This document shows positions 2,353 through 51,306 of a stretch of 64,000 nt of DNA, one piece after another. The DNA comes from a virus. The number at the start of each line of letters is the position of its first letter. Within the stretch, counting starts at the first letter, position 1. The stretch covers positions 8,790 through 72,789 of IMG/VR virus record IMGVR_UViG_3300025617_001484, one strand, 5' to 3'. The notes beneath the pieces were generated by a model. That model saw only the letters and a program-made list of their open reading frames with translations. It made no database searches and was not told the DNA's origin. The position numbers were made by a program, and so were the translations under genes.

Positions 2353-4107
2353 CTAGGTATCGAATATAGAGGTATTTTGAGAGGATACCTCGTATACATT
2401 TTCATTGACTATTAATATGTCTACAACGCCATCTATTAAATGTTTAAATGCTTCAACAGAAGTATTTATAATGGGTTCCCCGTGAACATTAAAAGAGGTA
2501 TTCATAAGAACAGGTATTCCGGTTATGTCGTTAAATTCCAGAAGTATCGGGAAAAAAGGTTTGTTATTTTCTTTGACAATCTGAATCCTCGAGGTGTTAT
2601 CAAATTTATTAATAACCCCAGGTATCTTGTGGACCCATTCGTCCTTTACATTATAACATATAGTCATGAATTGAGAAGCATACTTGGATTTATAGCAATG
2701 AAAGGGAATGTTCTCAAATCCATCCATCACAACAGGGGCAAAAGGCATAACCTCATTTCTGTTTAACCTTCTGTTTACATATTCCTGTGCATCATTCCTT
2801 CGCGGATCGAATAATATCGAAGTCCCACCAAGAGCTCTTGGACCCCACTCCCTCCGATTTGAAAAAACACCAACAACCTTGCCCATTTCTAAAGATTTGG
2901 CAATGTATTCTGCTGAAAATTTGGAAATAGATAATTCACCAGGTACTTCAGAAACTTTTGTCTCATTACCCCAAAAAACATTGTCTATACTACAGACATC
3001 GAACTCTCCCAATTCATTTGCCTTAGCTATTGCAGCACCAAGTGCAAGGCCACCGTCGGTCATACCAGGAGAGATAAAGATCTCATCGAATTCTGAAAGC
3101 TCGTTTATTTTTTGGTTAACCTTTACATTAGAAAATAAACCACCAGCAAGAGCTAATTTTTTTATGTGCGGATATTTTTTCTTGATATCCTGTATTGCAT
3201 CCAAGAAGTAATTTTCAGTAAGATATTGAAGCATATAGGAAGCATCCTTCCTAACATTTGAATCCTTTAAATCCAAAGAAGTAAAATAGGAGTAGCATGG
3301 TCCGTGATGTTTCCATTGTAGACTTCCATCATACTTAAAATAATCACCCAAGGAATCATACATTTCTTGGTTGAAAGATCCTTGTGCAGCTAAGCCTACG
3401 ATCTTACCCTCGTCCTTACCACCAAACATCCCGCATAAATGACAAAATGAATTCCAGAAGGCAGCTATCGAATCAAAACCTCTTACCTCCTCCTTCATGG
3501 TAAGATTACCTTCGCTTCCAATATACAGAGAAGCCCTACAACTACTCTGGGTATGCTCTGGTTTATACCACCATGAATCCTCCCATATTTGCAACTGACA
3601 TGGAAGATCTTCGGATTTTTTTGCTACTTTGGCTAATTCTATCCATTCCTCCTCAGGGACATCTGGTTCTCTCCTAGGTAAAGATTGACCTCTTATCTTT
3701 TGAAGTACACTAGCATCCAGCACACTGTCAGAAATACCATTGCCATCTCCACCATCGTAAGTCAAAACAAGAGTATCCTCACTGAATCCCGAAAGGTAAT
3801 AAGCTGTACATGCGTGTGAATAGTGATGTCCGTATAGGAAGATATCCTTTTTTTCCACTATTTTCTCCAGGTAATCCAAACCACATAGAACTGCTTTAGG
3901 CATAACTACTATCACATCATCATCAAACGGGGATATTCCTACATCACCTAATGCTTTCAACGAGTAGTCAGGAAAAGCAAATTGGTTAAATACACCCTTA
4001 ACTCTTTTAAACCTTTCTTCCTCAAAAGCGTATTTAATGTTTCCATCCTCAATATAAGCTACACCACAATCGTGTGTAACTGCTGAAATAGACAGTATCT
4101 TTGCCAT
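2353..4107 (-). CDS. Carbamoyltransferase, NodU/CmcH/TobZ family
   Basis: HD..., EEERFxRxK, HHxSHA, EGKxxGLA, LAGGLFSNV, DGGLALGA, ExGPRALG, MPFAP, NTSFNVHGEPI motifs. Confidence 0.93.
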   Translation of the reverse strand: MAKILSISAVTHDCGVAYIEDGNIKYAFEEERFKRVKGVFNQFAFPDYSLKALGDVGISPFDDDVIVVMPKAVLCGLDYLEKIVEKKDIFLYGHHYSHACTAYYLSGFSEDTLVLTYDGGDGNGISDSVLDASVLQKIRGQSLPRREPDVPEEEWIELAKVAKKSEDLPCQLQIWEDSWWYKPEHTQSSCRASLYIGSEGNLTMKEEVRGFDSIAAFWNSFCHLCGMFGGKDEGKIVGLAAQGSFNQEMYDSLGDYFKYDGSLQWKHHGPCYSYFTSLDLKDSNVRKDASYMLQYLTENYFLDAIQDIKKKYPHIKKLALAGGLFSNVKVNQKINELSEFDEIFISPGMTDGGLALGAAIAKANELGEFDVCSIDNVFWGNETKVSEVPGELSISKFSAEYIAKSLEMGKVVGVFSNRREWGPRALGGTSILFDPRRNDAQEYVNRRLNRNEVMPFAPVVMDGFENIPFHCYKSKYASQFMTICYNVKDEWVHKIPGVINKFDNTSRIQIVKENNKPFFPILLEFNDITGIPVLMNTSFNVHGEPIINTSVEAFKHLIDGVVDILIVNENVYEVSSQNTSIFDT

Positions 4108-4124
4108 AGAATTGCTATTAGACT

Positions 4125-5393
4125 TTACTTGGATTTTTTGCTTTTTAACATCTCTGCCTTCTGAGCAGCTGCTTTCCTGTAATGATCAAGATTTTTAAGT
4201 ATTCTATTTCTTTCATTCTCTGGTAGTGTTGGAAAGAAATCCATCTTTATAATAGCCTCAGTTTTTTCAAAGGCAACCTCAGGATTTCCAGTGTGGAAGG
4301 CAGATAATGCATATTCATCCAAAAGTCTCCATTGCCAAACTTCTGGTTCGACAAATAGAATATCAGATGTGCCTGGATTTTTTGTTGCCATATTACCATA
4401 AGTAAAAGAAAGAACCCATCTTCCCCTCTCCCTAAGTTTTCTCATTACGTGGAAAACTGCTTCGAGCCTTTCTGGTCTATATTCCCAAGCACGAGAGTAA
4501 GCTTGTATAACTTCATCAGGATGTCTACCAAGTTGCTCCTTTATCTTCCCTATCATGTACATTGAATAATAAACCTCTTCTTCCCATCCACCAGCTTCTA
4601 TTCTTCTCTCATAAGCATCTATAGCCTTAAGCTTTTGCCCAGAGTCTCTGTAGCTTTGAGCTAGATAAAACATATATCTAGCATTTTCAGGCTCATCTTT
4701 TAGTGCTTTTTCCAGAATCTCCGCATCGTTTGCATATTTTTCCTCCAGACTATTGGCTCTTTTAAGAGGGCTGATATCTGCATCCACGTGACATCTATCC
4801 GATGGTATTTGATACTGTATTAATTGTTCCTTACCAGGCAAATCCAAATATTCATGAAGTACCCCTTTATAAACCCAATCCTGATCTGACTTTACAATCT
4901 GAGCACGGTGATATTGTAAATTATTTAACCTATAGAGGATTTGAAAACAGTCTACGTCTTTTGGCAAACTATGAAATGGGTTTACTCCATTATTAGGGGA
5001 CTGGAAAGTATCATCCGCATCGATTATCCATCTATAATCACACTTTCCCTTTGACAGTTCCAAACTTTCAGTACGGTTTACTTCAAAATTAACCCAAGGT
5101 CTTTCGTGAACCTCTCCCTCAATACCTAGATCCTCCATAGTTGAATTGATCTCATCAATTGTATTGTCAGAAGAACCGGTGTCGACTATTACGTAGTATG
5201 AAATATATGGAGCAACCTGGGTCAAACACTTTCTTATGGTATCACCCTCGTCCTTTACTATCATCACCAAACATAAACTTATGCTTTGTTGGCTTTGATC
5301 AGAATTATTAAGATTCTGGGAATGTGTTAATTTTTTAGATGATGATTGCTTGGAAATCTTTGTTGATTTTTTCTTTTTGGTTTTAGATGCCAT
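4125..5393 (-). CDS. Family 2 glycosyltransferase with C-terminal TPR repeats
   Basis: LCLVMIVKDE, VDTGSSDNT, IDADD (DxD), GVLHE, then TPR-like FYLAQSYRD helices; Lys/Ser-rich N-terminal extension. Confidence 0.9.
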   Translation of the reverse strand: MASKTKKKKSTKISKQSSSKKLTHSQNLNNSDQSQQSISLCLVMIVKDEGDTIRKCLTQVAPYISYYVIVDTGSSDNTIDEINSTMEDLGIEGEVHERPWVNFEVNRTESLELSKGKCDYRWIIDADDTFQSPNNGVNPFHSLPKDVDCFQILYRLNNLQYHRAQIVKSDQDWVYKGVLHEYLDLPGKEQLIQYQIPSDRCHVDADISPLKRANSLEEKYANDAEILEKALKDEPENARYMFYLAQSYRDSGQKLKAIDAYERRIEAGGWEEEVYYSMYMIGKIKEQLGRHPDEVIQAYSRAWEYRPERLEAVFHVMRKLRERGRWVLSFTYGNMATKNPGTSDILFVEPEVWQWRLLDEYALSAFHTGNPEVAFEKTEAIIKMDFFPTLPENERNRILKNLDHYRKAAAQKAEMLKSKKSK

Positions 5394-5451: not shown

Positions 5452-6153
5452 TTATCCTCTATCTAATGAGGTAATTCTCTCAAGTATCAATTCGTCATTT
5501 AGAGTTAAAGTAAAATCGCCAACAGCTTTTATGTTTTTACCTTTCCTTTTAGAAACCAAATCTATTGTTACATATCCGGTTTCATCATCAGACAATTTTA
5601 TAGCTCTTTCTTTCTCTTTTTCACAGATTGGATCTAACGAAGTTCTGCTCATACCAGTTCCGTTCCAGTAAACAAGGGTTAAGTTATCTATTTTCCCATC
5701 AAGAACTTTAACTACCTGGTTTTCCCTTAGACATTCTATCTTTAAACTAGAACCAGATTTTCTAAACCTGGTGGAAAAAGTTAATAAAAAATATCCACGT
5801 CCATACAGGAGTCCAGGAATTGTGCTGTTTTTAGCGGAAAATAAAGGAAGAGATCCCTGGAATCTATGCCTCTTAAATCTAACCCCAAGCTCCATAAAAG
5901 ATTTCTCTATTATAGACATCAGATCATCAACATCCGTATCTGGGAGATCGAAAATAACATGTGGGTGTTTACCACCTATAACCTTGGGTATCTTTATATG
6001 TACGTCGGAAAAATATTTTAGATAATTTAAAATAACTTCCAGTATGGTATCAAGTTGATCCTTCTCAGAAAGACTTACTTTTTTATTGTGGTCTATCTCA
6101 GACTGAATCTGAGAAAGAAAATCCTCAATTACTTTTTCTTTATGAACGCTCAT
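5452..6153 (-). CDS. Hypothetical protein
   Basis: 233 aa ORF tightly packed with co-oriented neighbours; no motif recognised. Confidence 0.7.
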   Translation of the reverse strand: MSVHKEKVIEDFLSQIQSEIDHNKKVSLSEKDQLDTILEVILNYLKYFSDVHIKIPKVIGGKHPHVIFDLPDTDVDDLMSIIEKSFMELGVRFKRHRFQGSLPLFSAKNSTIPGLLYGRGYFLLTFSTRFRKSGSSLKIECLRENQVVKVLDGKIDNLTLVYWNGTGMSRTSLDPICEKEKERAIKLSDDETGYVTIDLVSKRKGKNIKAVGDFTLTLNDELILERITSLDRG

Positions 6154-6574
6154 CTTTATCTTTTATTCTTTTCCAGGAGTAGTCTGTATCTAGCTTAAAG
6201 TGGCCATAATATGGTATTTTTCTTCCCCACTCCCGTGGTGATATTAAGCTTGAAAAAACTTCACCTTTAGAATTTTCATAGAGATATATCTCAGTTCCTA
6301 TATGTGCTTCAAAGGACATGTTAGAATTCCAAACAAGCTCGTTATCCTCAAACTCCTTAAGTAGAGAAGAGATCTGTTCTTTGATCTCTTCAGCTCTTTT
6401 TCCAAATTTATGATTTGAGTTGGCTGCTGCTCTTTGTTTAAATAGAGAAAGTCCAGATATATCTATTTTCGGAGAGGAAACTGAAGTAGCATATGGCTTA
6501 AGAAAAGCGTCATATTTTCCACTTTCCTCATCATAAATAATACTATCAGGAAGTTTTTTCTTTTTTTCCTTCAT
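6140..6574 (-). CDS. DUF2452-like protein (Bacteroidota-type)
   Basis: PYATSVSSPKI...FEAHIGTEIYLYE...SLISPREW pattern. Confidence 0.65.
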   Translation of the reverse strand: MKEKKKKLPDSIIYDEESGKYDAFLKPYATSVSSPKIDISGLSLFKQRAAANSNHKFGKRAEEIKEQISSLLKEFEDNELVWNSNMSFEAHIGTEIYLYENSKGEVFSSLISPREWGRKIPYYGHFKLDTDYSWKRIKDKDERS

Positions 6575-7214
6575 CCTTTGATTTGTATTGGAGACCTATC
6601 TTATTAAGGAGCTGTTTATAAACGGTTTCTATTTTCTTAGAAGCATCTATTTTTACGAGTTTTCTGCTTTTCTTGTATTTTTTAATAAGAGGGAGAGTCT
6701 TTTCCTTGTATTCATTAAACCTTTTGGATATTACCTCAGTATCTTTATCATCATCACGGTTTTCCTTTTCAGATCTCTTGGAAATCCTTTCCTTGGCTTT
6801 ATCTTCATCCAAGTCCAAGTAAATAACATGATTAAGTCCTACTCCCATTTTCCCAAGCAAAGAATCCAACATCTTGGATTGCTTAACATTTCTCGGAAAT
6901 CCGTCAATAATAATTCCTTTCTCAAGATCAGCTTTACCTAATGCTTTTCTTAACATCCTTACCATGACTCTATCTGGTATGAAGTCGCCTTTTTTTACAA
7001 TCTTCTTAAGCTCCTCGTCTTCTGAATTACGTATAAGGTCCCCAGTAGAAATGTGTGTAAAGTCATTTTTGTCCACTAACCTCTTAGATATAGTTCCCTT
7101 ACCAGAACCAGGAGGTCCCAGAATAACAAGGATTTCTCCCTGCTTATCTGGTATTTCCCTTTCGTTTATATCGTCTTTGTTTACAAAGCTCTCAAAATTT
7201 TTAACTTTATTCAT
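6546..7214 (-). CDS. adk: Adenylate kinase (short LID) with N-terminal extension
   Basis: P-loop GPPGSGKGT, HISTGDLIR, IIDGFPRNVKQ, RxDD. Confidence 0.93.
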   Translation of the reverse strand: MNKVKNFESFVNKDDINEREIPDKQGEILVILGPPGSGKGTISKRLVDKNDFTHISTGDLIRNSEDEELKKIVKKGDFIPDRVMVRMLRKALGKADLEKGIIIDGFPRNVKQSKMLDSLLGKMGVGLNHVIYLDLDEDKAKERISKRSEKENRDDDKDTEVISKRFNEYKEKTLPLIKKYKKSRKLVKIDASKKIETVYKQLLNKIGLQYKSKDEGKKEKTS

Positions 7215-11300: not shown

Positions 11301-12713
11301 CTACGTTAATTTTTTCAATTGTTTCTCCAATTGGTCAATTTCTATCTGCAATTCCAGCATTCTTTTTTTCGTTTTCTTTCTTTTTGAATATAGATCCTTA
11401 ACTATAGTCTTTAAAATTGGGCTTTCGTCATCACCACCAAAGAGAGCTGTAGATGAAGTTTTTACCCATCCATCTCTAGCTTCAGAAACATCCTTTCCCA
11501 ATTTTCCTTTATAGACCTCCGGAGAAATTCCCCACTGTACAATAGTATTTGGGTATAGGGATGCAAAGTCGTAACAAGCAACCCATTCATGAAGTCCTTT
11601 GATGGGTTCTTTGACGTATCCACCAATAAACTTCACGTGACTTTCTTCTTTTCTTTCATTGACAAAGACCTGACCCCTTTCCAAGAATTTTTTGAGCATC
11701 ATTACCTCTGTAGCCCATACTGGAGAAAGTGCTCTACTAATTTCAACTCTATTCAAATTTGCAATCTTAAAGTATGTCAGTAGTGTTTTAAGCTTCACGT
11801 CGATATAATGAACAAGGGCACAGTCAATGACGTTATAGAGAATGAATTTAGGGAAGTCGGACTGGTAAAGGTCCCTTAAAGATCCTTCGTATACTATCTT
11901 CTTCAATCCTGTAGCCTTTTCCGCTACGTAGTCCAATCTATTACTCTCCTTGATCTTAATTGTTCTGTCCCATTTTTTATAGATATCAAGATAATCGACC
12001 ATTAATAGGTGCATGGGTAGATTGTTCTTTCCTATAAGCCAATTGGCTGGGGAAATTACTTTGGGATCGATGCCAAGTCTCCTAGCACGATTAACCAAAT
12101 AAGGCCAGTCGTATCCAAACCAGTTCCATCCAGTTATTAGTGGCATTTTAGGTGCCAATTTCTTGAAGAAGGTATAGAGCATATCATACTCTGATTCGAA
12201 TTGGTGATATTTGAAAGACCATTCGTCACCCATGGGTTTTAGATACTCGTTGGTCTTGTCATATATTTCAGCCTGCTCTTTCGGACTAAGTGGATCTAGA
12301 CCAAGTATAATCGACTTACACTTATCAGTAGCAATCCCAATCGAAAGTATCTTGTTCTTTGCATTAGCAGTGTCTAGTGAATCCCCCATCTCATCGGTCA
12401 TTTCAACCTCAATGTCGACGAAGTATTTCTTTGGGGTTTGGAAATCCCAAAGAGATTTTGTTAATTCCGGATCTGCCTCTTCAAGAATCTGAACCATCCT
12501 GTATTTGTCATACTTCTGTGTCTTTACCTTCCTAACTGGAACGCCGTCCCATGATTGCCAATCAGATTCCTTTCTTCTGTCTCCTGGGGAGCATTTTTCC
12601 CAGATGAATCTCTCTTTCTCCGGAACTGGAACATCAATAAAAATTAAATCCCCTTCTTCCGAAAAGGATGATACTTTTAAATAAGTCCCTTTGTTTTCTA
12701 TATCTACTATCAT
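11301..12713 (-). CDS. Family B DNA polymerase, N-terminal part only (exonuclease plus motif A; gp43A-like)
   Basis: ExoI VDIEVE, ExoII GWNWFGYDWPY, ExoIII YNVIDC, motif A YDFASLYPN; ends in the fingers without motifs B and C. Likely start is ATG 12713 rather than 12788. Confidence 0.9.
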   Translation of the reverse strand: MIVDIENKGTYLKVSSFSEEGDLIFIDVPVPEKERFIWEKCSPGDRRKESDWQSWDGVPVRKVKTQKYDKYRMVQILEEADPELTKSLWDFQTPKKYFVDIEVEMTDEMGDSLDTANAKNKILSIGIATDKCKSIILGLDPLSPKEQAEIYDKTNEYLKPMGDEWSFKYHQFESEYDMLYTFFKKLAPKMPLITGWNWFGYDWPYLVNRARRLGIDPKVISPANWLIGKNNLPMHLLMVDYLDIYKKWDRTIKIKESNRLDYVAEKATGLKKIVYEGSLRDLYQSDFPKFILYNVIDCALVHYIDVKLKTLLTYFKIANLNRVEISRALSPVWATEVMMLKKFLERGQVFVNERKEESHVKFIGGYVKEPIKGLHEWVACYDFASLYPNTIVQWGISPEVYKGKLGKDVSEARDGWVKTSSTALFGGDDESPILKTIVKDLYSKRKKTKKRMLELQIEIDQLEKQLKKLT

Positions 12714-12719
12714 GAAATA

Positions 12720-12739
12720 AAATTGAGATATCTCAATTT
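12720..12739. promoter_or_regulatory. Perfect 20-bp palindrome between divergent genes
   Basis: AAATTGAGATATCTCAATTT is its own reverse complement and sits directly upstream of the polymerase ATG at 12713. Confidence 0.6.
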
Positions 12740-12771
12740 GGCTTTGACCAAAAAAGATATATACAATACTT

Positions 12772-13092
12772 ATGGAAAGCAGGGTCAAAAGTTTCGAGAA
12801 ATTCCTTAATGAATATTATATTTCGTCCGCACCGGGAAGTGTGGTTGTACCAGGAGAATGGTACAAGGATAACGTGAACTCAAGAAACTATAGACCTGCA
12901 TATACGCAAACCCCACAAGTAGTGGATGCTATGTTCCAGAGCACAGATCTTTACAACTACCTAGACACATTGGCTGAGGAGGAAGAATTTACCAGCATGA
13001 TGAAGGATGGTAAAGAACCCAAAGAGATAATCAAGTACGTAAAGAAAAGAATTCACGAGGAGCTTTCAGCTAATGCTAAAACCTCAGAATAA
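12772..13092 (+). CDS. Hypothetical protein with capsid-targeting-like N-terminus
   Basis: 106 aa, MESRVKSFEKFLNE; GATATATA on the + strand at 12756-12763. Confidence 0.75.
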   Translation: MESRVKSFEKFLNEYYISSAPGSVVVPGEWYKDNVNSRNYRPAYTQTPQVVDAMFQSTDLYNYLDTLAEEEEFTSMMKDGKEPKEIIKYVKKRIHEELSANAKTSE

Positions 13093-14449: not shown

Positions 14450-14806
14450 TTAAGAGATCTTAATTTTCTTTGGCATAGATTCTTTCTTCTTAGATATCTT
14501 AATTTTTAAAATACCATCAGATATCTTACCACTTACAGAATCTGGATCAGCACCAATAGGGAGCTTAAACTTTTTAACAAAATCGTCTGTCCAATAAGAT
14601 TCATTATCCTCTCCACTTATAACTAGAAGGTTTCCGTCGATCTCAACCGAAATATCTTCCCGTGTAAATCCAGCAACTGGCAATTCTAGTAAATATTCGC
14701 TATCCTTCTCATCTACAAAATGACCTCTACTCTGGATTACTGGATTTGTGTTGTTTAAGATTTTTTCCATCATTTCCAATGGGTTGTAAATAGTTGATCT
14801 GCTCAT
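14450..14806 (-). CDS. Small heat shock protein (Hsp20/alpha-crystallin)
   Basis: LELPVAGFTREDISVEIDGNLLVISG...FKLP...DGILKIKI. Confidence 0.92.
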   Translation of the reverse strand: MSRSTIYNPLEMMEKILNNTNPVIQSRGHFVDEKDSEYLLELPVAGFTREDISVEIDGNLLVISGEDNESYWTDDFVKKFKLPIGADPDSVSGKISDGILKIKISKKKESMPKKIKIS

Positions 14807-17917: not shown

Positions 17918-19831
17918 TCAGGATTTGACACTCGTAACTAAATCGTTGTAAAGGTTTGAAACCTCCTTAGTTACCATTTTCTTAAACTTTGAGAAATCTT
18001 CGTCCTCTATAGCATTTCTCACCTCTGTACCACTAGTTACTCTAGGGGTTTCTACTATGTCAAGGGCATCACTAATTTTGTCTTTTATGTCAGACATCTT
18101 AATGTAGTCGATCTGCTTTGTGTAATCGTCTATTCTATCGGGACCAGCTCCGATTAAATGTGGATCATATCCCATATCTATAAGCTTAGCAATTGCAGAG
18201 CCTAAAAGACCTCTATTTACGATCATGTACCCGTCAATTTCCTCGTTACTATCAACAATGGCATCCATGTATCTACGTATAGATTGTTCATCAAACGGGG
18301 ATTTACCAGATTTATTGTGACCTGGGTATACCACAACAGCATATGAATTCATATCATTCTTATCCTTAAGCTCCTTTGCCATCTTTAAGTGACCCAAGTG
18401 GAATGGCTGGAATCTTCCCATTATAACATTAACAGGTTTCAGTTCTTCTTTGCTCTCTTCCTTAATAAGATCTACCTCTTTGGGGATTTCCTCATTATCA
18501 ATTGTTTCCAGCTTGCTAATAAATTCCTGGTATGAGAAGAAAGGGTCCTCGTTGGTATCAGCTTCCTCGTCTTCTTCCTGTAGATAATCTACAGAAGGTG
18601 AATTTTCTCTCCGGAACTCATCAAAGCTAACAAACTTGGACTCATTAACATTCTTAGGTTTCTTTATATAATCCTTAATATCCTGTATCAAAAGATTTAT
18701 TTGATCCTTCATACCGGATGTAACTATACCACCAGCTCTTGTCTTAATCTTTCTAAAAGAATTTAGAATGAGCTTGTATAATGATTCAAAGGATTCATCC
18801 TTCTCCACATATTTTAAAACCCTTCTATCTTTAACTTTATCCCGATTAAGCCTAAACTCATCCCTTTTTAGATATTCAGGTTCTTCAAAATCAGTACCTT
18901 TATATTTTTCTGAATACTCATCCAAAAACTTAACAAAGACATCACTTATAAACGAGATGTATCTTTCATCCTCCGATTCTCCATTAACTTCAAATTCCGC
19001 AAGCCCTTTCTCCAATATAAAGTTCATTACATCCAGCAATGTAATGCCCAAAAAATCGGAAGGCTTTTTACCTTTCTTGTCAGCAAATTTTTTCTTAGCA
19101 ATCTCGGTAAATATCGGATCTACCATCTTGGCAAGAACTGTATCACTATCCCCATCCAGTTCACCAAATCTAAAAACTATTCCCTCAACATCTTTGTCAA
19201 GATCGTCATTAAGAGCTGTTTTAGTTAATTCTGGATTAAGGGTCTTAATTATATAGCGAACGAAAGATTGGGTTTTGAATTTTTCTACAAGCTCCTTGAA
19301 AGGGGTATTTAGAAATTCCATTAAATCAGACTTTTGATCTTCGTTTAATAATCCCTGGAAAATAATAGGAGGTCTTTCAACACCAAGAAGATCAGACCAG
19401 TCATTCAGCTCGTTCTCATCCTGTATGGTTCTCTCTATTTTTCCACCAGTTCCCATTTTATGAATATACGAAAGAATTAAATTGTTCTTCGGTAGTCTAT
19501 CATAAACAATCTCAACAGGTTTTTTGTTAGCAAAATATTCTAATCCAAACCTCCACCCACGTGGTATTTTTTCTAGTATGTTAGGGGGTAGGGATTCTAT
19601 ATACTGAATAGGTTTCTCGTAATACTTCATTAAAGTACGATCTACCAGAGTTATCGGATTTCTTTGATCCCTTCTATAGAATTTAAAATTTCCAGTCTCC
19701 TTGTCCCTTTCAAAGGAAAAAGCAGATCCGTCCATCTTTTCGTTTATAGTTACAAACTGACTAAAGAGCTGACTTACAAAGTCAGATCCTTTCTTGTTAT
19801 AAATATCGTATAAGTGATTAATTCCAGCCAT
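17918..19831 (-). CDS. Fusion: RNA-ligase-like (KxDG) nucleotidyltransferase plus HIGH-family cytidylyl/adenylyltransferase
   Basis: N-terminal EKMDGS, FGLEYF, EGIVFR, LAKMV (ligase motifs I, III, IV, V); C-terminal GRFQPFHLGH, GAGPDR, SGTEVR. Confidence 0.75.
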   Translation of the reverse strand: MAGINHLYDIYNKKGSDFVSQLFSQFVTINEKMDGSAFSFERDKETGNFKFYRRDQRNPITLVDRTLMKYYEKPIQYIESLPPNILEKIPRGWRFGLEYFANKKPVEIVYDRLPKNNLILSYIHKMGTGGKIERTIQDENELNDWSDLLGVERPPIIFQGLLNEDQKSDLMEFLNTPFKELVEKFKTQSFVRYIIKTLNPELTKTALNDDLDKDVEGIVFRFGELDGDSDTVLAKMVDPIFTEIAKKKFADKKGKKPSDFLGITLLDVMNFILEKGLAEFEVNGESEDERYISFISDVFVKFLDEYSEKYKGTDFEEPEYLKRDEFRLNRDKVKDRRVLKYVEKDESFESLYKLILNSFRKIKTRAGGIVTSGMKDQINLLIQDIKDYIKKPKNVNESKFVSFDEFRRENSPSVDYLQEEDEEADTNEDPFFSYQEFISKLETIDNEEIPKEVDLIKEESKEELKPVNVIMGRFQPFHLGHLKMAKELKDKNDMNSYAVVVYPGHNKSGKSPFDEQSIRRYMDAIVDSNEEIDGYMIVNRGLLGSAIAKLIDMGYDPHLIGAGPDRIDDYTKQIDYIKMSDIKDKISDALDIVETPRVTSGTEVRNAIEDEDFSKFKKMVTKEVSNLYNDLVTSVKS

Positions 19832-26047: not shown

Positions 26048-26830
26048 CTAAGTGCTCCAAAAGTTTCCCTTAGATTCTATATATCCATAACTTTTTTTAA
26101 TAATTTCCTCTCCAACAACCTCAGTTTCCCAAACTTTTTTGCCTCTAAGAGACACTTTTACCAAAGGTCTGGTCAAATTATATTCAGAGGATTTGATATG
26201 ATGTCTTAATAGTGTCTCGGGATGGAAATAGATACCAGATAAAATATACTCTTCCATAAAATCAAACATCATACAGTAATATTCCATAGAGTCCCTATCT
26301 CCCCATGCAAAGATGTCATTGACTCCTCCCTTCCAATCATAACCAGGTGGAATACGGATAGTGTTTAGGTTAGAATCCAGAGGAATATGATTGTGTATTT
26401 TGATATCCATTCTTCCCTTTATTACATAATCATACCTTTCACCCAAGAGGTCTTCATACTCTTTCATCAAAAGGAATGCTTGCTTTATCTTATACCACAT
26501 CAAGAAAACAGACACTGGGTTAATCTCTCCTGTTTGTGGTCCAAATTTTTCATAGCTCCAAGCTTTTTCTATAAGGGAGCTAATACCAGCAGATTCAAAA
26601 TCATCAGTTTTTAATGACTTTGGAGAATAAAGTTTAACAAGGGTATCAATTGACAACGTGTCAGTGAGGTGTTGCGTTTCTGCGTGCAAAGACCCATTGA
26701 TGGAATCTGAAGGGTTCCAGGTGGAAATAAAAACATCAGCATTAAATCTATCCAATATCCTTCCCTTTATGTAGGGATAGGTATCACTAGCTTCCCTAAT
26801 TTGTCCAGGTAGGAGGAGAGCAACTTTCAT
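26048..26830 (-). CDS. Putative glycosyltransferase-like protein
   Basis: MKVALLLPGQIR...DVFISTW...YDYVIKGRMD...NDIFAWG...HPETLL, a pattern seen in polysaccharide-locus proteins. Confidence 0.6.
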   Translation of the reverse strand: MKVALLLPGQIREASDTYPYIKGRILDRFNADVFISTWNPSDSINGSLHAETQHLTDTLSIDTLVKLYSPKSLKTDDFESAGISSLIEKAWSYEKFGPQTGEINPVSVFLMWYKIKQAFLLMKEYEDLLGERYDYVIKGRMDIKIHNHIPLDSNLNTIRIPPGYDWKGGVNDIFAWGDRDSMEYYCMMFDFMEEYILSGIYFHPETLLRHHIKSSEYNLTRPLVKVSLRGKKVWETEVVGEEIIKKSYGYIESKGNFWST

Positions 26831-27267
26831 CGATATAAAGAGATGTAATCAGAGCAAATCCCATAGCATCCTTCTACGGGATCCTCATAAACTTCAGGCA
26901 AAACAGCAATACTGTTTTTAATTGGTTGATTACCTGGATAAGCCCAAACAAATCCCCCCGTGGTTATTGTTACGAGGTCGCTTTGGTGCCAAAAAACATT
27001 AAGTGTGGGATAATCCTTAAGATAAATTAAAGCTGGTATATTTTTGCAATGAACCCAAAGACTTTCACTTCTTTTCAGGAGCCACTCGAGGGTTATTTTA
27101 TTTTCGGGAAAGTCATGTCCAAGATAAATTGACGTACCGTCTATCCATACGTCAATCTCAACATCGTAACCCGAATCCAGTGCTTCCTGTATATAACAAG
27201 TTGTATTTTCCCTGCCTGGATCTGGTCCGTTAATATTTCCTCTATGAGAAATTAATTTCGACATCAA
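26827..27267 (-). CDS. PLC/GDPD-like phosphodiesterase (minimal)
   Basis: LISHRGN...EN...GYDVEIDV...LGHD...WVHCKN...GICSD. Confidence 0.75.
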   Translation of the reverse strand: MMSKLISHRGNINGPDPGRENTTCYIQEALDSGYDVEIDVWIDGTSIYLGHDFPENKITLEWLLKRSESLWVHCKNIPALIYLKDYPTLNVFWHQSDLVTITTGGFVWAYPGNQPIKNSIAVLPEVYEDPVEGCYGICSDYISLYR

Positions 27268-28499
27268 AAAATTCTATAATCTAGATCCGGTGAAAACTTT
27301 CTCTTACCCCACTTCTCTATAGCTGCTAAATACTCCTCACCTTCCAGATCTCCATTTATAGATTGTTTCATAGCTAAAGCTCCCGCTCTAGTTCCCATTG
27401 GATGACCGTGCATTGCTCCACCTACGTTTGCCATCCAATCCACACTACTAAGTGTTTCGTTGATATATTCAACCAGACCCGGGTGCATACCACAGCTTAG
27501 TGCAGAAACTATATTATATTTCCAAAGAACTTCTAAAGCATCCCTTATCTCCTCCTCATCCTGGTTCATATATCCACCGACCATTCCAGCATGTATAGAG
27601 TCTACTCCAGACCAACCTGCAATCTTACATATCACTGGCCAATATATGTGATAAGGTGCCCTCCTGTCAGTAAAGAATTTATCACCACTTTTCTGGAAGT
27701 GTATCCAGAGATTTGGATTCTGTTTACGGATCGCTCTATAAACTCCAAGACCGCTCCACACGTTTATATGAATACCATTACCACCGTTATCAGCAACAAA
27801 TTTTGCCCTCTCAAGTGCATATGGGCTATCGCCATTTATACAAAAGCAGTATATAACGTCGGGTGCATTCTCTTTCAACCAAGATGTTATTAGTGGTACT
27901 CTTTCTTCGAGAGGACAGTGGGATGGATTAGCTAGAAGTTCGTCCTCTTTTATAAAGTTAACACCACCATACACCATCTCCTTCACAGCTTCTAGTAGTA
28001 TCTCAGGAGACATCCCGACCTTAGGCTTTATTATTCCACCAAAGAAGGGTTTTTCATATACCGAGTTGAACTTCCTAAATCCATCTATTCCGTATGCTGG
28101 CTTCAATCTAAAATTTTCTTCCACCATTTCGGGTAAAGTTATGTCCAATACGTTACATTTTTCAATCTCTTCTATATCAACCTGACCGCCAGCTATGTGA
28201 CATAGGATCTGAGAAATACCATCTTCCTCCAAATTAATATTTTCAAGAGGAAATGCAATTTTCACAATGCCCTCTTTTAATTTAGAAAGTTCCTCCTCGT
28301 TGGCCAAGATAAAGCAACTATGATCCATAAACATCTGGTCTGTTTCCCAGACACTCCTATTATTTGGATTTCCTATGCTTTGACCTATGGCTAAGTTCCA
28401 TGAGGCTTCTCTCAAAGATCTTTTTGAGCCCAAAAAATAAGTTACTATAAAATATTTTTCGAGTGATATCTGTTCAGGTTCTACAAAAATACTTATCAT
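27264..28499 (-). CDS. RuBisCO-like protein (form IV type)
   Basis: GIIKPKVG, GGVNFIKEDE, GVDSIHAG, LSCGMHPG, VGGAMHGHPMG; 411 aa. Confidence 0.92.
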   Translation of the reverse strand: MISIFVEPEQISLEKYFIVTYFLGSKRSLREASWNLAIGQSIGNPNNRSVWETDQMFMDHSCFILANEEELSKLKEGIVKIAFPLENINLEEDGISQILCHIAGGQVDIEEIEKCNVLDITLPEMVEENFRLKPAYGIDGFRKFNSVYEKPFFGGIIKPKVGMSPEILLEAVKEMVYGGVNFIKEDELLANPSHCPLEERVPLITSWLKENAPDVIYCFCINGDSPYALERAKFVADNGGNGIHINVWSGLGVYRAIRKQNPNLWIHFQKSGDKFFTDRRAPYHIYWPVICKIAGWSGVDSIHAGMVGGYMNQDEEEIRDALEVLWKYNIVSALSCGMHPGLVEYINETLSSVDWMANVGGAMHGHPMGTRAGALAMKQSINGDLEGEEYLAAIEKWGKRKFSPDLDYRIF

Positions 28500-28819
28500 T
28501 CAACTATAAATTTATCACCAGGTACTGATGGTGTTTTTACTATAAATACTTCGCAATCTTCAAGGAACACCGGATCTGCTATCTCATCTTTCCTTAAAAT
28601 AAAGATATCCCCACCATTCAATTCCTTTCCCTGTATAATCATCTTACCGGACCTAAGGAAATTTATTTCATCCGCCTCTTTATGATAATGTTTTGGCCAG
28701 GATTCTCCTTTAGAGTGATGTTTATAACAGATTTCAAAATCTTCTGTTTGATATGCGACTGGGGAAAAGTTTCCAGCATACCATCCACCTTTCATATCTT
28801 CTATTTTAAAAATTTCCAT
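28496..28819 (-). CDS. Cupin-fold protein
   Basis: GWYAGNF...HYHKEADEIN...GDIFIL...VKTPS. Confidence 0.8.
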   Translation of the reverse strand: MEIFKIEDMKGGWYAGNFSPVAYQTEDFEICYKHHSKGESWPKHYHKEADEINFLRSGKMIIQGKELNGGDIFILRKDEIADPVFLEDCEVFIVKTPSVPGDKFIVE

Positions 28820-29552
28820 CTTTAACGAGTTTTAAATAATATTCTAGATCATCTGGAGTTCCTATTGGAAAGTGAAGATTATAGAAATAAGGGAGGATTT
28901 TCTTTCCCTTTTTAATCATATAATTATAAGTTGGTGCAACATAGAATTCGTTGTTATACCTATCGTTGCATGATACCATCTCTTCAGCAGATTCAACAAA
29001 ACAAGAGCCTCTTTTCCATAAGTGCAATCCATTAGTTGCTATATTGGATATAACTATCTTCTCCTTTACCTCACAAACTTCGCCATTCGGGTCAAGTCTT
29101 ACGTAGCTATTCTTCTTAGAAGATGAGAGAAAACAGCCTAAAAGTCCATCACATCCGGTCGTTTCAACAAATCTAATTATATTATCCAGATTAAAATCCC
29201 CAATGATCTGATCACAATTTATAACTATAAGAGGATCCGAATTATCAATAGCTTCTTTTGCTACCAGGACAGTTGATGCAGGTCCTTCAGTAAGCTTATC
29301 TACAGAAAAAACACTTCCATCCACACAGATTTCAGAAATGTGATCTTCAAAATCAGAAATAGAAACATACTCCTCGTTTACAACAAATATAAAATTAGCA
29401 GAGGGATGCTGTAAATTTTTGATCACCGACTTTATCATCGATTCACCATTTACATCAATAAAAGGCTTTGGCTCTTTATACCCAGCATCTGAAAATCTTT
29501 TACCCGCTCCTCCAAGGGGTATAAGAATATTAATCTTCTTTGATCTTATCAT
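28806..29552 (-). CDS. Sugar-phosphate nucleotidyltransferase (NTP_transferase family)
   Basis: LIPLGGAGKRF...PKPFI, TEGPA, INCDQ, EK, NEFYVAP, GTPDDL. Likely start is ATG 29552. Confidence 0.85.
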   Translation of the reverse strand: MIRSKKINILIPLGGAGKRFSDAGYKEPKPFIDVNGESMIKSVIKNLQHPSANFIFVVNEEYVSISDFEDHISEICVDGSVFSVDKLTEGPASTVLVAKEAIDNSDPLIVINCDQIIGDFNLDNIIRFVETTGCDGLLGCFLSSSKKNSYVRLDPNGEVCEVKEKIVISNIATNGLHLWKRGSCFVESAEEMVSCNDRYNNEFYVAPTYNYMIKKGKKILPYFYNLHFPIGTPDDLEYYLKLVKDGNF

Positions 29553-30201
29553 ACAAGTACAAACAAATCCAGGTTGAGTCAATTATATCATCGAGAGGCT
29601 TATTTACGTTTCCCGATGGTGTTATCCACTCATCCTTATTTTCTTCAAGTACTTTAGTAAAAGATCCTAAATTAGTTTCTGTGAAATTTCTTTCAATAAG
29701 AGAACTGTAGAGCTCGTGTTTTTTTGCATTTCCCTTATATGCAAACTTTTTAATAGATGTTGGAGAAAAAACATGGAAGTTCTCGCTTCCGGTATGATCA
29801 ACTATTTTTTTTCTAAGAAGTGCGGTTGCCATAGAAATATCAATAAGAGCATTTCCGTTAGAGGCAAAACTTAGGCCCTCCATAGCAACTATAATATCAT
29901 CTCCAGAACATATGTTTTCAATCTCAGACCAGAAAGAATCGACTAATTCCTGGAAGTAATCTATTTTAATCCTTTCCCTTTCTGAGTATTCGTCTGGAAG
30001 CTTACTTTTTCCCATAAACATTAGTACAAAATCACCACTCTTATCTTCGGAAAGAACTGAATATGGCTTCTTCGAATTTTTCTTGAGCGATTCCGCTGTC
30101 CTTTCGCTCCGGGTTAAAGATCCCCAGGTAAATTCATTTTCTTTAAGTATACAAAAAGCGGGTGAGTTAAGGGAAAAATCTATTCCAACTAATGTTTTCA
30201 A
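29530..30201 (-). CDS. RuvC-like (RNase H fold) Holliday junction resolvase/nuclease
   Basis: VGIDFSLNSP, AMEGLS, PTSIKKFA..GNAKK, DDIIDS; TTG start. Confidence 0.75.
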   Translation of the reverse strand: MKTLVGIDFSLNSPAFCILKENEFTWGSLTRSERTAESLKKNSKKPYSVLSEDKSGDFVLMFMGKSKLPDEYSERERIKIDYFQELVDSFWSEIENICSGDDIIVAMEGLSFASNGNALIDISMATALLRKKIVDHTGSENFHVFSPTSIKKFAYKGNAKKHELYSSLIERNFTETNLGSFTKVLEENKDEWITPSGNVNKPLDDIIDSTWICLYLYDKIKED

Positions 30202-30241: not shown

Positions 30242-30289
30242 AAAGCCCTCATTTATTGAAGGCTTTGGCCTAAGGAGACTATCCTTAGG
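30242..30289 (-). terminator. Tandem hairpins, likely terminator
   Basis: AAAGCC...GGCTTT (30242-30266) and CCTAAGGA-gacta-TCCTTAGG (30269-30289), lying at the boundary of the structural and replication blocks. Confidence 0.55.
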
Positions 30290-50673: not shown

Positions 50674-51306
50674 GTGGATAAAAACAAATTTTCTATCACA
50701 TTATCAAAGGAGCAAAAAAATGCAAAAGCTCAGATATTAATACATCCATTTAATTTTGTTACTGGGAAAGCAGGAAGTGGTAAAACACTTCTGGCAGTAC
50801 AGATTGCACTAGACCAACTGTTCAAAAAACAATGTGAAAAAATAGTCATAACAAGACCAACAGTATCAAACGAGGATAATGGATTTCTACCGGGATCCCT
50901 GGAAGAAAAAATGGAACCATGGTTAGTTCCGATTAGATCCAACATGAGAAAGGTGTACAACAAGGCAGACCACTTGGAAAGGTTGGAAAAAGATGAAACT
51001 ATAGAATTGGTATCTCTAACACACTTCCGCGGTAGAACATTTGACCGTTCCATTGTAATAGTGGATGAGTTTCAAAACCTAACCAAACAACAACTAGGTA
51101 TGGTTTTGGGTAGGTTGGGTAAACACTCTACAATGATACTTTGTGGGGACGGACAACAAATAGATCTCAAGTTCGGTAATGATTCAGCAATCCATGAAGT
51201 ACCTAAATTAAAGGACTCTAAATACGTTTACACAATTGCTCTGAAGGATAACCACCGACACGAAGCTATTGAAGAAGTACTAAGACTTCTCTACGCATTT
51301 AATTAA
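50674..51306 (+). CDS. phoH: PhoH family ATPase
   Basis: GKAGSGKT, ITRP, GFLPG..EEKM.PW, RGRTF, VDEFQN, GDxxQID, NHRH. Confidence 0.95.
   Translation: MDKNKFSITLSKEQKNAKAQILIHPFNFVTGKAGSGKTLLAVQIALDQLFKKQCEKIVITRPTVSNEDNGFLPGSLEEKMEPWLVPIRSNMRKVYNKADHLERLEKDETIELVSLTHFRGRTFDRSIVIVDEFQNLTKQQLGMVLGRLGKHSTMILCGDGQQIDLKFGNDSAIHEVPKLKDSKYVYTIALKDNHRHEAIEEVLRLLYAFN

Follow-up and report, generated by a model that had tools for sequence, protein, structure and literature searches.

We suggest that a phage fragment carries a five-gene carbohydrate-precursor cassette whose conserved three-enzyme core would generate a glycan precursor, namely an unusual sugar or sugar-like phosphate in nucleotide-activated form; we give this reading a probability of about 0.6. 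On our best reading, the core consists of a RuBisCO-like protein (RLP) and an NTP-transferase, joined in phages by a small cupin. The cassette lies in a window of 64,000 nucleotides, the whole stretch of DNA analysed here, from a 72.8-kb IMG/VR phage fragment whose record is only ~26% complete.

The five genes occupy positions 26048-29552 on the minus strand and are chained by overlaps. In order, they encode an NTP-transferase of the sugar/alcohol-phosphate nucleotidylyltransferase type (A, 28806..29552, 248 aa from ATG), a putative single-domain cupin (B, 28496..28819, 107 aa), the RLP (C, 27264..28499, 411 aa), a minimal protein with a GDPD-like phosphodiesterase fold (D, 26827..27267, 146 aa, or 145 from ATG) and a DUF7796-like protein with the GT-A fold of nucleotide-diphospho-sugar transferases (E, 26048..26830, 260 aa). 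Coordinates, strand, junctions and family or fold matches confirm the arrangement given in a preliminary description of this DNA. As read from the sequence, A and B overlap by 14 nt, the B/C and D/E junctions are ATGA, and C and D meet at TGATG with a 1-nt overlap using ATG. The start of A (ATG at 29552; a TTG ORF extends to 29582) overlaps by 23 nt the 3' end of a RuvC-like gene (29530..30201, minus strand; phrog_159, 8.1e-15), a chained neighbour outside the pathway. Upstream of this gene, a pattern scan detected a terminator-like hairpin (30242..30266, minus strand), a weak candidate for the 5' limit of the transcription unit; the scan found 21 such sites in the region versus 7.6 expected. 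On the other side, a 40-nt gap separates E from gp32 (Pfam, 1e-12), and primase (phrog_47) and helicase (phrog_16) genes also flank the cassette here. The preliminary description placed the block between the RuvC-like gene and gp32-primase-uvsY-uvsW, which holds for the RuvC-like, gp32, primase and helicase genes, while the 148-aa ORF that it called uvsY had no family match. In its replication genes the phage is T4-like. Because the identical gene order recurs with 45-94% protein identity in 16 of 80 related viral loci, those sharing the window's backbone, the five genes are not chance ORFs.

By sequence, gene C belongs to the RuBisCO large-subunit superfamily, with both domains above their Pfam gathering scores (RuBisCO_large, PF00016, 114.2 bits, cut-off 30.1; RuBisCO_large_N, PF02788, 25.2 bits, cut-off 20.7). 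It falls below every NCBIfam cut-off (TIGR03326, 163.7 vs 497.45; NF003252, 146.5 vs 438; NF010002, 96.4 vs 489); the best model is form III, at about one third of its cut-off, and the next closest are MtnW and OiaX. We judged its residues against form II and III rows that pass their family cut-offs, at the carboxylation positions in spinach numbering. The metal/carbamate core is kept (KPK, K-E-D-E and H303, equivalent to Lys175, Lys177, carbamylated Lys201, Asp203, Glu204 and His327), while Lys334 of loop 6 is replaced by Tyr, His294 by Gln, Arg295 by Lys, His298 by Asp, Glu60 by Gln, Thr65 by Asn, Trp66 by Pro (plus an insertion) and Asn123 by Gly or Gln. These replacements are invariant or typical across the clade, in which Q40, Q269 and Y310 are invariant. 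Because KPK and K-E-D-E are kept while the Q-K, Tyr and Gln substitutions are invariant or typical, the pattern argues for one conserved, non-carboxylating catalytic function of the clade. In a tree whose reference clades are labelled by best NCBIfam model only, the RLP clade stands apart from the YkrW-like and OiaX-like groups (support 100); rooting on a form II row places it further out than every form III row. Gene C is therefore classified as a form IV-type protein, i.e. a RuBisCO family member with carboxylation residues replaced that branches outside forms I-III.

Three more specific identities were rejected for gene C. A bona fide RuBisCO of forms I-III was dismissed on the missed cut-offs and the replaced carboxylation residues. 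The MtnW/YkrW 2,3-diketo-5-methylthiopentyl-1-phosphate enolase was dismissed on scores (113.2 vs 409 and 90.4 vs 513.6 bits) and on the separate clade; the preliminary description had named membership in a methionine-salvage clade as evidence that would count against a biosynthetic role, and the protein lies outside that clade. No mtn-type neighbours were among the matches within the window. Finally, OiaX 3-oxo-isoapionate-4-phosphate decarboxylase was dismissed at 120.5 vs 700 bits, the OiaX-like rows forming their own clade with support 100. Relatives of near length number 2060 at E<=0.001, the best 120 all at least 77% identical, and their automatic name in the sources is "ribulose-bisphosphate carboxylase large chain".

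A is a predicted sugar/alcohol-phosphate nucleotidylyltransferase, matching Pfam NTP_transferase (PF00483; 47.9 bits, cut-off 21.2; 1.7e-12), phrog_3980 (2.9e-57) and PDB 4evw (1.4e-15), with the N-terminal G-x-G-x-R loop present as GGAGKRF. B scores 18.1 bits against Cupin_7, under the cut-off of 27, and matches phrog_24762 (4.4e-30); across its family, 29 of 36 members match Cupin_7 and 13 match Cupin_2 at E<=0.1, and its profile matches in the PDB are small cupins. In its HxH...E metal motif, H44 and E51 are invariant and H46 is present in at least 90% of the family; the mannose-6-P isomerase Pfam family gave no match to B. D appears GDPD-like by motifs and modelled fold: it matches phrog_34507 (2.1e-30), its family profile matches a PDB GDPD (8.9e-5), and the top Foldseek matches of its model (pLDDT 97.4) are GDPDs (TMq 0.60-0.62, with a weak E of 3e-3), with no Pfam match at E<=0.01. 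The invariant residues H8, R9 and G10, E37 and D39, and H51 make up an intact GDPD catalytic set (HRG, E-x-D, second His); at 146 aa, D is far below the about 240 aa of the (beta/alpha)8 barrel of a full GDPD and does not qualify as one. For E, a model (pLDDT 90.7) predicts the GT-A fold, with Foldseek matches to GT6/GT8 (E 2e-6, TM 0.43-0.46) and a VIA match to Mnn9 (Z 11.1, rmsd 3.3 over 182 residues). E matches phrog_13607 (3.4e-23) and, in Pfam, only DUF7796, below cut-off; its Atlas neighbours are named DUF7796 or "capsular polysaccharide biosynthesis". R140 and D142 are invariant in its family, which has no clear DxD motif, and the fold also resembles nucleotidyltransferases (VIA Z 9-10).

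The RLP and an A-type NTP-transferase keep close company far beyond the window. They lie within 3 kb of each other in 76 of the 80 viral loci, only 16 of which share the window's backbone, and in 44 of 48 cellular genome loci, although many of these "cellular" loci are MAG or SAG contigs with possible viral contamination and one (L085) is clearly viral. In 40 of the 48, from many phyla, the distance is at most 400 bp. The exceptions are four viral loci (L021, L022, L060, L064) and four genome loci (L088 and the short L104, L126 and L132). Cellular carriers of the pair include SAR11, Legionella, DPANN and Patescibacteria, among others. A cupin is within 3 kb of the RLP in 74 of the 80 viral loci. 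Moreover, the genes are naturally fused, as RLP-NTP (P0122; cluster n=128, 12 of the 15 members listed having 667-671 aa), as RLP-NTP-cupin (P0271, 813 aa; P0272, 817 aa), as GDPD-RLP (P0287, 546 aa, on 4 contigs), as NTP-cupin (12/80 viral loci) and as GDPD-GT (L059); a HAD_2-NTP fusion was also found. The co-occurrence that the preliminary description had asked for is thus widespread. Most viral loci embed the RLP-NTP core in clusters of glycosyltransferase (GT), methyltransferase and aminotransferase genes: three sugar O-methyltransferase-like families lie directly downstream of the RLP in 21, 14 and 12 of the 80, and SDR epimerase/dehydratases, DegT aminotransferases, UDP-GlcNAc 2-epimerases and GT2/GT1 are further neighbours. 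In the cellular loci the neighbours are GT9, GT17, GT61, RmlD, DUF4422, LicD and CTP_transf_3. These glycan-gene neighbours, together with co-occurrence and fusions, support the sugar-nucleotide/glycan interpretation already put forward in the preliminary description. Counting against it, the window's own cassette is surrounded by replication and recombination genes, not by a glycan island. The loci with no A near the RLP, the possible viral origin of many cellular contigs, the missing clear DxD motif and nucleotidyltransferase-like fold of E, and the shortness and weak Foldseek E-values of D likewise weigh against it.

From these identities, folds, conserved catalytic residues, co-occurrences and fusions, we infer each chemical step, the step order and the target of the following model. 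The RLP, using its retained carbamylated-lysine/Mg2+ site, would enolise a keto-sugar phosphate and rearrange it without addition of CO2, by isomerisation, epimerisation or similar. The cupin may carry out a second metal-dependent isomerisation, and the NTP-transferase would couple the resulting phosphate ester to a nucleotide. D could take the step immediately preceding or following that of the RLP, acting on a phosphodiester or a phosphate ester. E would transfer the activated unit, the likeliest acceptor being either a virion protein or a glycan on the surface of the infected cell. A branched sugar or a polyol as product, as the preliminary description suggested, is a guess.

This acceptor could instead be phage DNA, with E glycosylating a hypermodified base. 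T4-like phages modify their DNA with glucose or arabinose, and the T4-like replication genes, the position of the cassette among DNA-metabolism genes (RuvC-like on one side, gp32/primase/helicase on the other) and a weak DUF1599 "nucleotide modification associated" match in 8/80 related loci all speak for this idea. However, the cellular RLP-NTP core accompanies builders of surface glycans (GT9, GT61, LicD, RmlD), the viral core mostly sits in the GT, methyltransferase and aminotransferase clusters, and no base-hydroxymethylase is among the PHROG and Pfam matches of the window, itself part of an incomplete record; we regard DNA as a rather improbable target. The product may also not be a sugar donor, but a nucleotide-activated phospho-acid or phospho-alcohol that is passed on either as a small molecule or as a substituent in phosphodiester linkage, as in CDP-alcohol/LicD or CofC-type systems. 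RuBisCO-family chemistry naturally ends in phospho-acids. In Legionella loci a LicD-family gene and the RLP-NTP pair point away from each other, the phosphodiesterase-fold D is found fused to the RLP, a Woesearchaeota locus has a full-length GDPD and a Pelagibacter locus a 2-hydroxyacid dehydrogenase, and the fold of E matches phospho-acid and alcohol nucleotidyltransferases with Z 9.5-9.7. This product nevertheless seems unlikely to us: classical NDP-sugar tailoring and sugar O-methyltransferase-like genes stand beside the RLP in most loci, the NTP-cupin fusion is the architecture of bifunctional GDP-mannose enzymes, and the best matches of E are glycosyltransferases.

Two further explanations were considered. 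A salvage or catabolic auxiliary gene, for disposal of methylthioribose/5-deoxyribose or for sugar-acid catabolism and only incidentally placed beside the sugar genes, would agree with the characterised RLPs named in the NCBIfam library (MtnW, OiaX), all of which act in salvage or catabolism and whose models rank next after form III. Scores far under both equivalog cut-offs, the separately supported clade, the lack of mtn-type genes among the window's neighbours and the rule of adjacency and fusion to an NTP-transferase make it very unlikely. A working, CO2-fixing RuBisCO borne by the phage is suggested by the automatic name, the form III model and the kept KPK and K201/D203/E204, but a form III score of 163.7 bits where the cut-off is 497, Tyr for the loop-6 Lys and the replacement of H294, R295, H298, E60, T65, W66 and N123 contradict carboxylation by sequence, and we attach almost no likelihood to it.

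The proposed activated-sugar pathway shares parts with several known systems. MtnW/YkrW and OiaX have the fold and carbamate/metal triad of the window's RLP and perform enolate chemistry without CO2 fixation, as we propose here. However, the KPK of the window's clade is KPC in YkrW-like and KPS/N in OiaX-like rows, its loop-6 Tyr is Lys in both, and its gene context is biosynthetic rather than salvage or catabolic. The best-scoring solved relatives are form III RuBisCOs (e.g. PDB 2cwx, 1geh; 118.8 bits for the single sequence, 225.8 for the clade profile), which share KPK, K201, D203, E204 and H327 with the RLP but not its replaced carboxylation and phosphate-site residues. The bifunctional type II phosphomannose isomerase/GDP-mannose pyrophosphorylase likewise combines an NTP-transferase with a cupin; the window has this pair as separate neighbours, 12/80 related loci as one polypeptide. 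Unlike in the type II enzyme, the cupin is a minimal 107-aa domain and an RLP accompanies the pair, in some cases as part of one polypeptide.

Cultured cyanomyophages carry adjacent A-B-E-D homologues in one direction and without an RLP, in carbohydrate ("heptose/LPS-like") clusters (SynMITS9220M01 gp192-195, Bellamy 206-208 and 213, S-SM2 204-211, S-CAM9, B23). A homologues occur in 22 phage records (24-41% identity), 19 of them from Synechococcus phages (27-41%), 2 from Ralstonia phages and one from an uncultured "Bacteriophage sp."; cyanomyophage identities are 42% for B, 33-50% for D and 25-31% for E. The cyanophage A homologues, unlike A of the window, carry a fused HAD phosphatase/mutase-like domain. 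An RLP was absent from all 50,697 GenBank phage records searched. Some of these cassettes have class II aldolase-family and SIS isomerase genes beside D in place of the RLP, consistent with an RLP that supplies a ketose-phosphate rearrangement. They also count against our reading: since A, B, D and E can function there in the absence of an RLP, this protein may be a dispensable side branch. The published description of these clusters is solely as heptose-related LPS genes (PMC7378029).

Phage RLPs have been described before. Jaffe et al. 2019 (Mol Biol Evol 36:435; PMC6389311) reported ~80 divergent sequences resembling form IV, which group with Beckwithbacteria, on phage scaffolds from IMG/VR and groundwater (some of them Myoviridae), and in its main text leaves their function open. 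The window's clade is very probably the same, because it too contains a Beckwithbacteria MAG (L095) alongside myovirus-like contigs from IMG/VR. The words "nucleotidyl" and "glycosyl" are absent from that main text, in which neither the link to an NTP-transferase, cupin, GDPD-like protein and GT nor the fusions nor any members from SAR11, Legionella and DPANN appear. The preliminary description's statement that no phage pathway of this composition has been characterised stands in that we found none in the literature, nor any report tying an RLP to sugar activation; it needs qualifying in that phage RLPs and, as an annotated cyanophage cassette, A, B, D and E were already known.

To our knowledge, few functions have been assigned to RLPs, all in salvage or catabolism. 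Because its partnership with a nucleotidyltransferase is conserved and even fused, this RLP suggests a novel reaction and, probably, a novel activated sugar, and the triple fusion offers a single polypeptide for enzymology. Taken jointly, at slightly less than even odds, the RLP clade would be the first in the RuBisCO superfamily to act in biosynthesis and, with its dedicated nucleotidyltransferase (and cupin), would define an undescribed activated-sugar route for the surfaces of SAR11, Legionellales, DPANN archaea, Patescibacteria and others, a route that large phages of marine and fresh waters would have captured repeatedly to give the infected cell or their own virions a new coat. An abundant family named "ribulose-bisphosphate carboxylase large chain" can inflate estimates of viral or SAR11 carbon fixation; if the biosynthetic reading is true, thousands of metagenomic "RuBisCO large chain" calls would be glycan genes rather than genes for carbon fixation. 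The movement of the module among phage and host genomes is also relevant to the ways in which phages change surface glycans.

Five minus-strand genes at 26048-29552 encode an NTP-transferase (28806-29552), a small cupin (28496-28819), a RuBisCO-like protein (RLP; 27264-28499), a GDPD-like protein of 146 aa (26827-27267) and a GT-A-fold protein of 260 aa (26048-26830). Together with the RuvC-like gene (29530-30201, minus strand), which is the first in the chain, they form a run of six minus-strand genes joined by overlaps. Beyond a gap of 40 nt, gp32 follows, then a primase gene, two small ORFs and the gene for a UvsW-type helicase. No family was matched by the 148-aa ORF named uvsY in the preliminary description. 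By contrast, the names given there to the five products are correct at the level of family or fold, as judged from family, profile, residue and model results. The RLP passes both RuBisCO Pfam models. The NTP-transferase is a PF00483 nucleotidyltransferase (phrog_3980), and the 107-aa cupin belongs to a family in which H44 and E51 are invariant and H46 is near-invariant. The GDPD-like protein matches no Pfam family. However, a profile of its family hits GDPDs of known structure over their N-terminal half (E 9e-5), H8-R9-G10, E37, D39 and H51 are invariant in an alignment of 41 members, and the best Foldseek matches of its model (pLDDT 97) are GDPDs, with TMq 0.60-0.62 and weak E-values. For the last protein, the family profile gave only a chance-level match to PDB sequences, while the model (pLDDT 90.7) has a GT-A-type fold; Foldseek matched it to GT6/GT8 (E 2e-6) and VIA to Mnn9 (Z 11.1); in the VIA comparison, Z was 10-11 for many further glycosyltransferases and 9-10 for nucleotidyltransferases.

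The source record is a linear IMG/VR virus of 72,789 bases, 26% complete according to CheckV, and the window spans its bases 8790-72789. GC content is 35-40% throughout the window with no break at the block, and elsewhere the window encodes ribonucleotide reductase, a piece of DNA polymerase, PhoH, tail tube, baseplate and very large structural proteins. The phage is a large T4-like myovirus, distant from cultured ones: its gp32 has at most 41.6% identity to that of any GenBank phage, the best match being in an uncultured 462-kb phage. No near-identical DNA was found with a 20 kb query among 50,697 GenBank phage records, a tRNA search found zero tRNAs, and a scan for sigma-70-like promoters showed no enrichment (36 found vs 49 expected). 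The polymerase ORF (11301-12788, minus strand, 495 aa) matches only positions 109-495 of the 856 in the phrog_262 profile; it may be one half of a split polymerase whose counterpart lies elsewhere. A minus-strand run of very large genes at 38079-60633 (1845, 1189, 736, 1218, 536 and 1343 aa), most of which match no named family, is broken by the plus-strand PhoH gene (50674-51306). Also on the minus strand, adenylate kinase (PF00406, 3.9e-39), a DUF2452 protein and an Hsp20-like small heat-shock protein are encoded at 6140-7214 and 14450-14806, and a 637-aa protein (17918-19831) combines an RNA-ligase-like N-terminal part (PF09414, 1.5e-4) with a cytidylyltransferase-like C-terminal part (PF01467, 3e-5; phrog_3041, 1.4e-13).

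Against the curated NCBIfam models, the RLP scores one third or less of each cut-off: 163.7 vs 497 for form III, 113 vs 409 and 90 vs 514 for the MtnW models, and 120 vs 700 for OiaX. We built two trees by "quick" LG+G4 searches with SH-aLRT as the only support measure, and reference clades were labelled solely by the best NCBIfam model (105 representatives, the last row without a label). In the first tree (74 rows, with a form II row as root), the RLP lies within a 19-row clade with support 100, and the OiaX-like clade (support 100) and the YkrW-like clade (98) are both separate from it. Thus, the RLP falls outside the methionine-salvage clade, in keeping with the biosynthetic role initially proposed for it. 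The split of this clade from the salvage and OiaX groups is firm, but the identity of its sister group is not; in this tree it is an unlabelled group (support 91), for which form III and Chlorobium-type RLPs are the best relatives of known structure.

For the active site, we aligned the RLP with rows passing the form II/III cut-offs and assigned residue roles by the spinach numbering. It keeps K175-P-K177, K201, D203, E204, H327, S379, G381 and G403. In contrast, E60 is replaced by Q, T65-W66 by N-P-N, N123 by G/Q, H294-R295 by Q-K, H298 by D, the loop-6 K334 by Y, G380 by C and G404 by A. Among 18 clade members (35-83% identical), Q40, K158-P-K160, K184-E-D-E187, Q269 and Y310 are invariant. 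The active site of the clade is conserved and, as predicted from these residues, would be suited to metal/carbamate-assisted enolisation and not to CO2 addition.

Near-length relatives of the RLP number 2060 at E<=0.001, and a library clustered at 50% identity holds 941 representatives at E<=0.001 and 58 at E<=1e-30. The best 120 relatives are 77-96% identical and lie on contigs of up to 288 kb; a protein search found the RLP in none of the 50,697 GenBank phage records. Two distant RLP lineages unrelated to this clade carry a fused TIR domain (P0217, 583 aa) or an APH-type kinase domain (P0240, 1265 aa). Cellular loci come from SAR11 single cells and a complete Ca. Pelagibacter chromosome, three Legionella species, Tatlockia, Francisellaceae, Azospirillum, Turneriella, Elusimicrobia, Verrucomicrobia, Planctomycetes, Bacteroidota, Beckwithbacteria, Saccharibacteria and other Patescibacteria, and Woese-, Pace-, Nano- and Micrarchaeota, although some of the short MAG/SAG contigs among them may be viral. 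One 64-kb contig binned as a Saprospirales MAG (CALAZP010000190.1) carries the whole backbone of the window (gp32 92%, helicase 91%, RLP 81%); we treat it as a phage contig inside a MAG, and Saprospirales as host is set aside as a binning artefact. In the second tree, restricted to the clade with its sister group as root, cellular sequences make up the basal branches, while viral sequences lie in the crown, interleaved with cellular ones (6-7 label changes); the placement of the Azospirillum row, a faulty 745-aa ORF with a branch length of 8.7, was disregarded. This topology suggests that phages captured the RLP and that it was exchanged repeatedly.

The preliminary description proposed a joint pathway, and the genes indeed co-occur elsewhere. 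We compared the best 80 of 120 confirmed IMG/VR places with 48 cellular loci, one genome per species. Within 3 kb of the RLP, an NTP-transferase is present at 76/80 viral and 44/48 genome loci (in 40 of the latter within 400 bp), a cupin at 74/80 and 15/48, a GDPD-like gene at 61/80 and 21/48, and a GT-A-fold gene at 34/80 and 2/48. The backbone of the window is common to only 16 of the 80 viral loci. Moreover, natural fusions tie every part of the cassette together: RLP-NTP (P0122, in a cluster of 128 members; of the 15 members listed, 12 have a length of 667-671 aa and several sources are represented, and four were BLAST-checked), RLP-NTP-cupin (P0271, 813 aa; P0272, 817 aa), GDPD-RLP (P0287, 546 aa, on 4 contigs), NTP-cupin (12/80 viral loci), GDPD-GT (viral locus L059) and HAD_2-NTP (phages and Pelagibacter).

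The genes around the RLP are glycan genes. Directly downstream lie methyltransferases of the CmcI-like (21/80), FkbM (14/80) and TylF-like (12/80) families, some loci having two; SDR epimerase/dehydratases are nearby at 20/80 viral loci, and further viral neighbours are DegT aminotransferases, UDP-GlcNAc 2-epimerases, GT2, GT1 and UDP-glucose dehydrogenase. Cellular neighbours (Pfam) include GT9, GT17, GT61, RmlD, DUF4422 and CTP_transf_3, and a Woesearchaeota locus has a GHMP-kinase-NTP fusion, FkbM and a full-length GDPD. At six viral loci (L026, L028, L029, L030, L032 and L036), genes for DHBP synthase (RibB), an APH-like kinase, a HAD-like ORF and a transaldolase/FSA-like protein sit upstream of NTP-cupin-RLP, and in cyanophage S-SKS1 the NTP-transferase homologue lies under a gene annotated as DHBP synthase; these arrangements hint at a substrate derived from a pentulose phosphate. 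About 20 kb from the block, the window has a second carbohydrate pair (2353-5393, minus strand), a NodU/CmcH-type carbamoyltransferase (Carbam_trans_N and C, 1e-43; 2353-4107) and a GT2 glycosyltransferase with TPR repeats (4125-5393), which may act on the same glycan.

In cultured cyanomyophages, homologues of the NTP-transferase, cupin, GT-A-fold and GDPD-like genes lie side by side but no RLP accompanies them, as in SynMITS9220M01 (gp192-195) and Bellamy (206-208 and 213). The accessible text of the SynMITS9220M01 genome announcement mentions, in general terms only, heptose-related LPS synthesis genes (PMC7378029). In S-SM2 and Bellamy, a class II aldolase-family gene and a SIS isomerase adjoin the GDPD-like homologue. 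By this comparison, the RLP has either been added to a pre-existing, uncharacterised sugar cassette or has replaced part of it. Metal-stabilised enediolates of ketose phosphates are intermediates for class II aldolase-family enzymes as well as for RLPs, and the two substitute for one another in other pathways, which fits an RLP that would rearrange a ketose phosphate before activation.

We suggest a scheme in which the RLP would enolise and then rearrange a keto-sugar phosphate, the cupin would further isomerise the product, the NTP-transferase would activate it, the GDPD-like protein would carry out a phosphodiester or phosphate step adjacent to that of the RLP, and the GT-A-fold protein would transfer the activated unit. 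In its simple form, this scheme is weakened because the cyanophage cassette works without an RLP and because a few loci have an RLP without the NTP-transferase. The GDPD neighbours and a divergent LicD gene at the Legionella maceachernii locus, the sole Legionella locus scanned with Pfam, leave room for a phosphodiester-linked product. Likewise, the placement of the block among replication genes leaves room for a role in DNA modification.

The clade of the window RLP may coincide with the IV-GOS clade of Tabita. The GOS paper, in its accessible text, describes novel groups of RuBisCO homologues and gives no gene context (PMC1821046). Phage RLPs are already in print: the clade described by Jaffe et al., with a Beckwithbacteria link and an IMG/VR myovirus context, is matched by the clade of the window RLP, and the main text of that paper contains neither "nucleotidyl" nor "glycosyl", while its supplementary genome maps may show neighbours (PMC6389311). 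At the level of titles and abstracts, that paper alone among those listed concerns phage RLPs, and none on SAR11 RLPs addresses a sugar-activation context; a literature search found no paper joining RuBisCO-like proteins, nucleotidyltransferase and polysaccharide. Thus, RLPs and NDP-sugar cassettes are each of known kinds, whereas the sugar-activation context of the RLP is absent from the searchable literature text. This context is relevant to the enzymology of the RuBisCO family and to the glycobiology of marine phages and their hosts.
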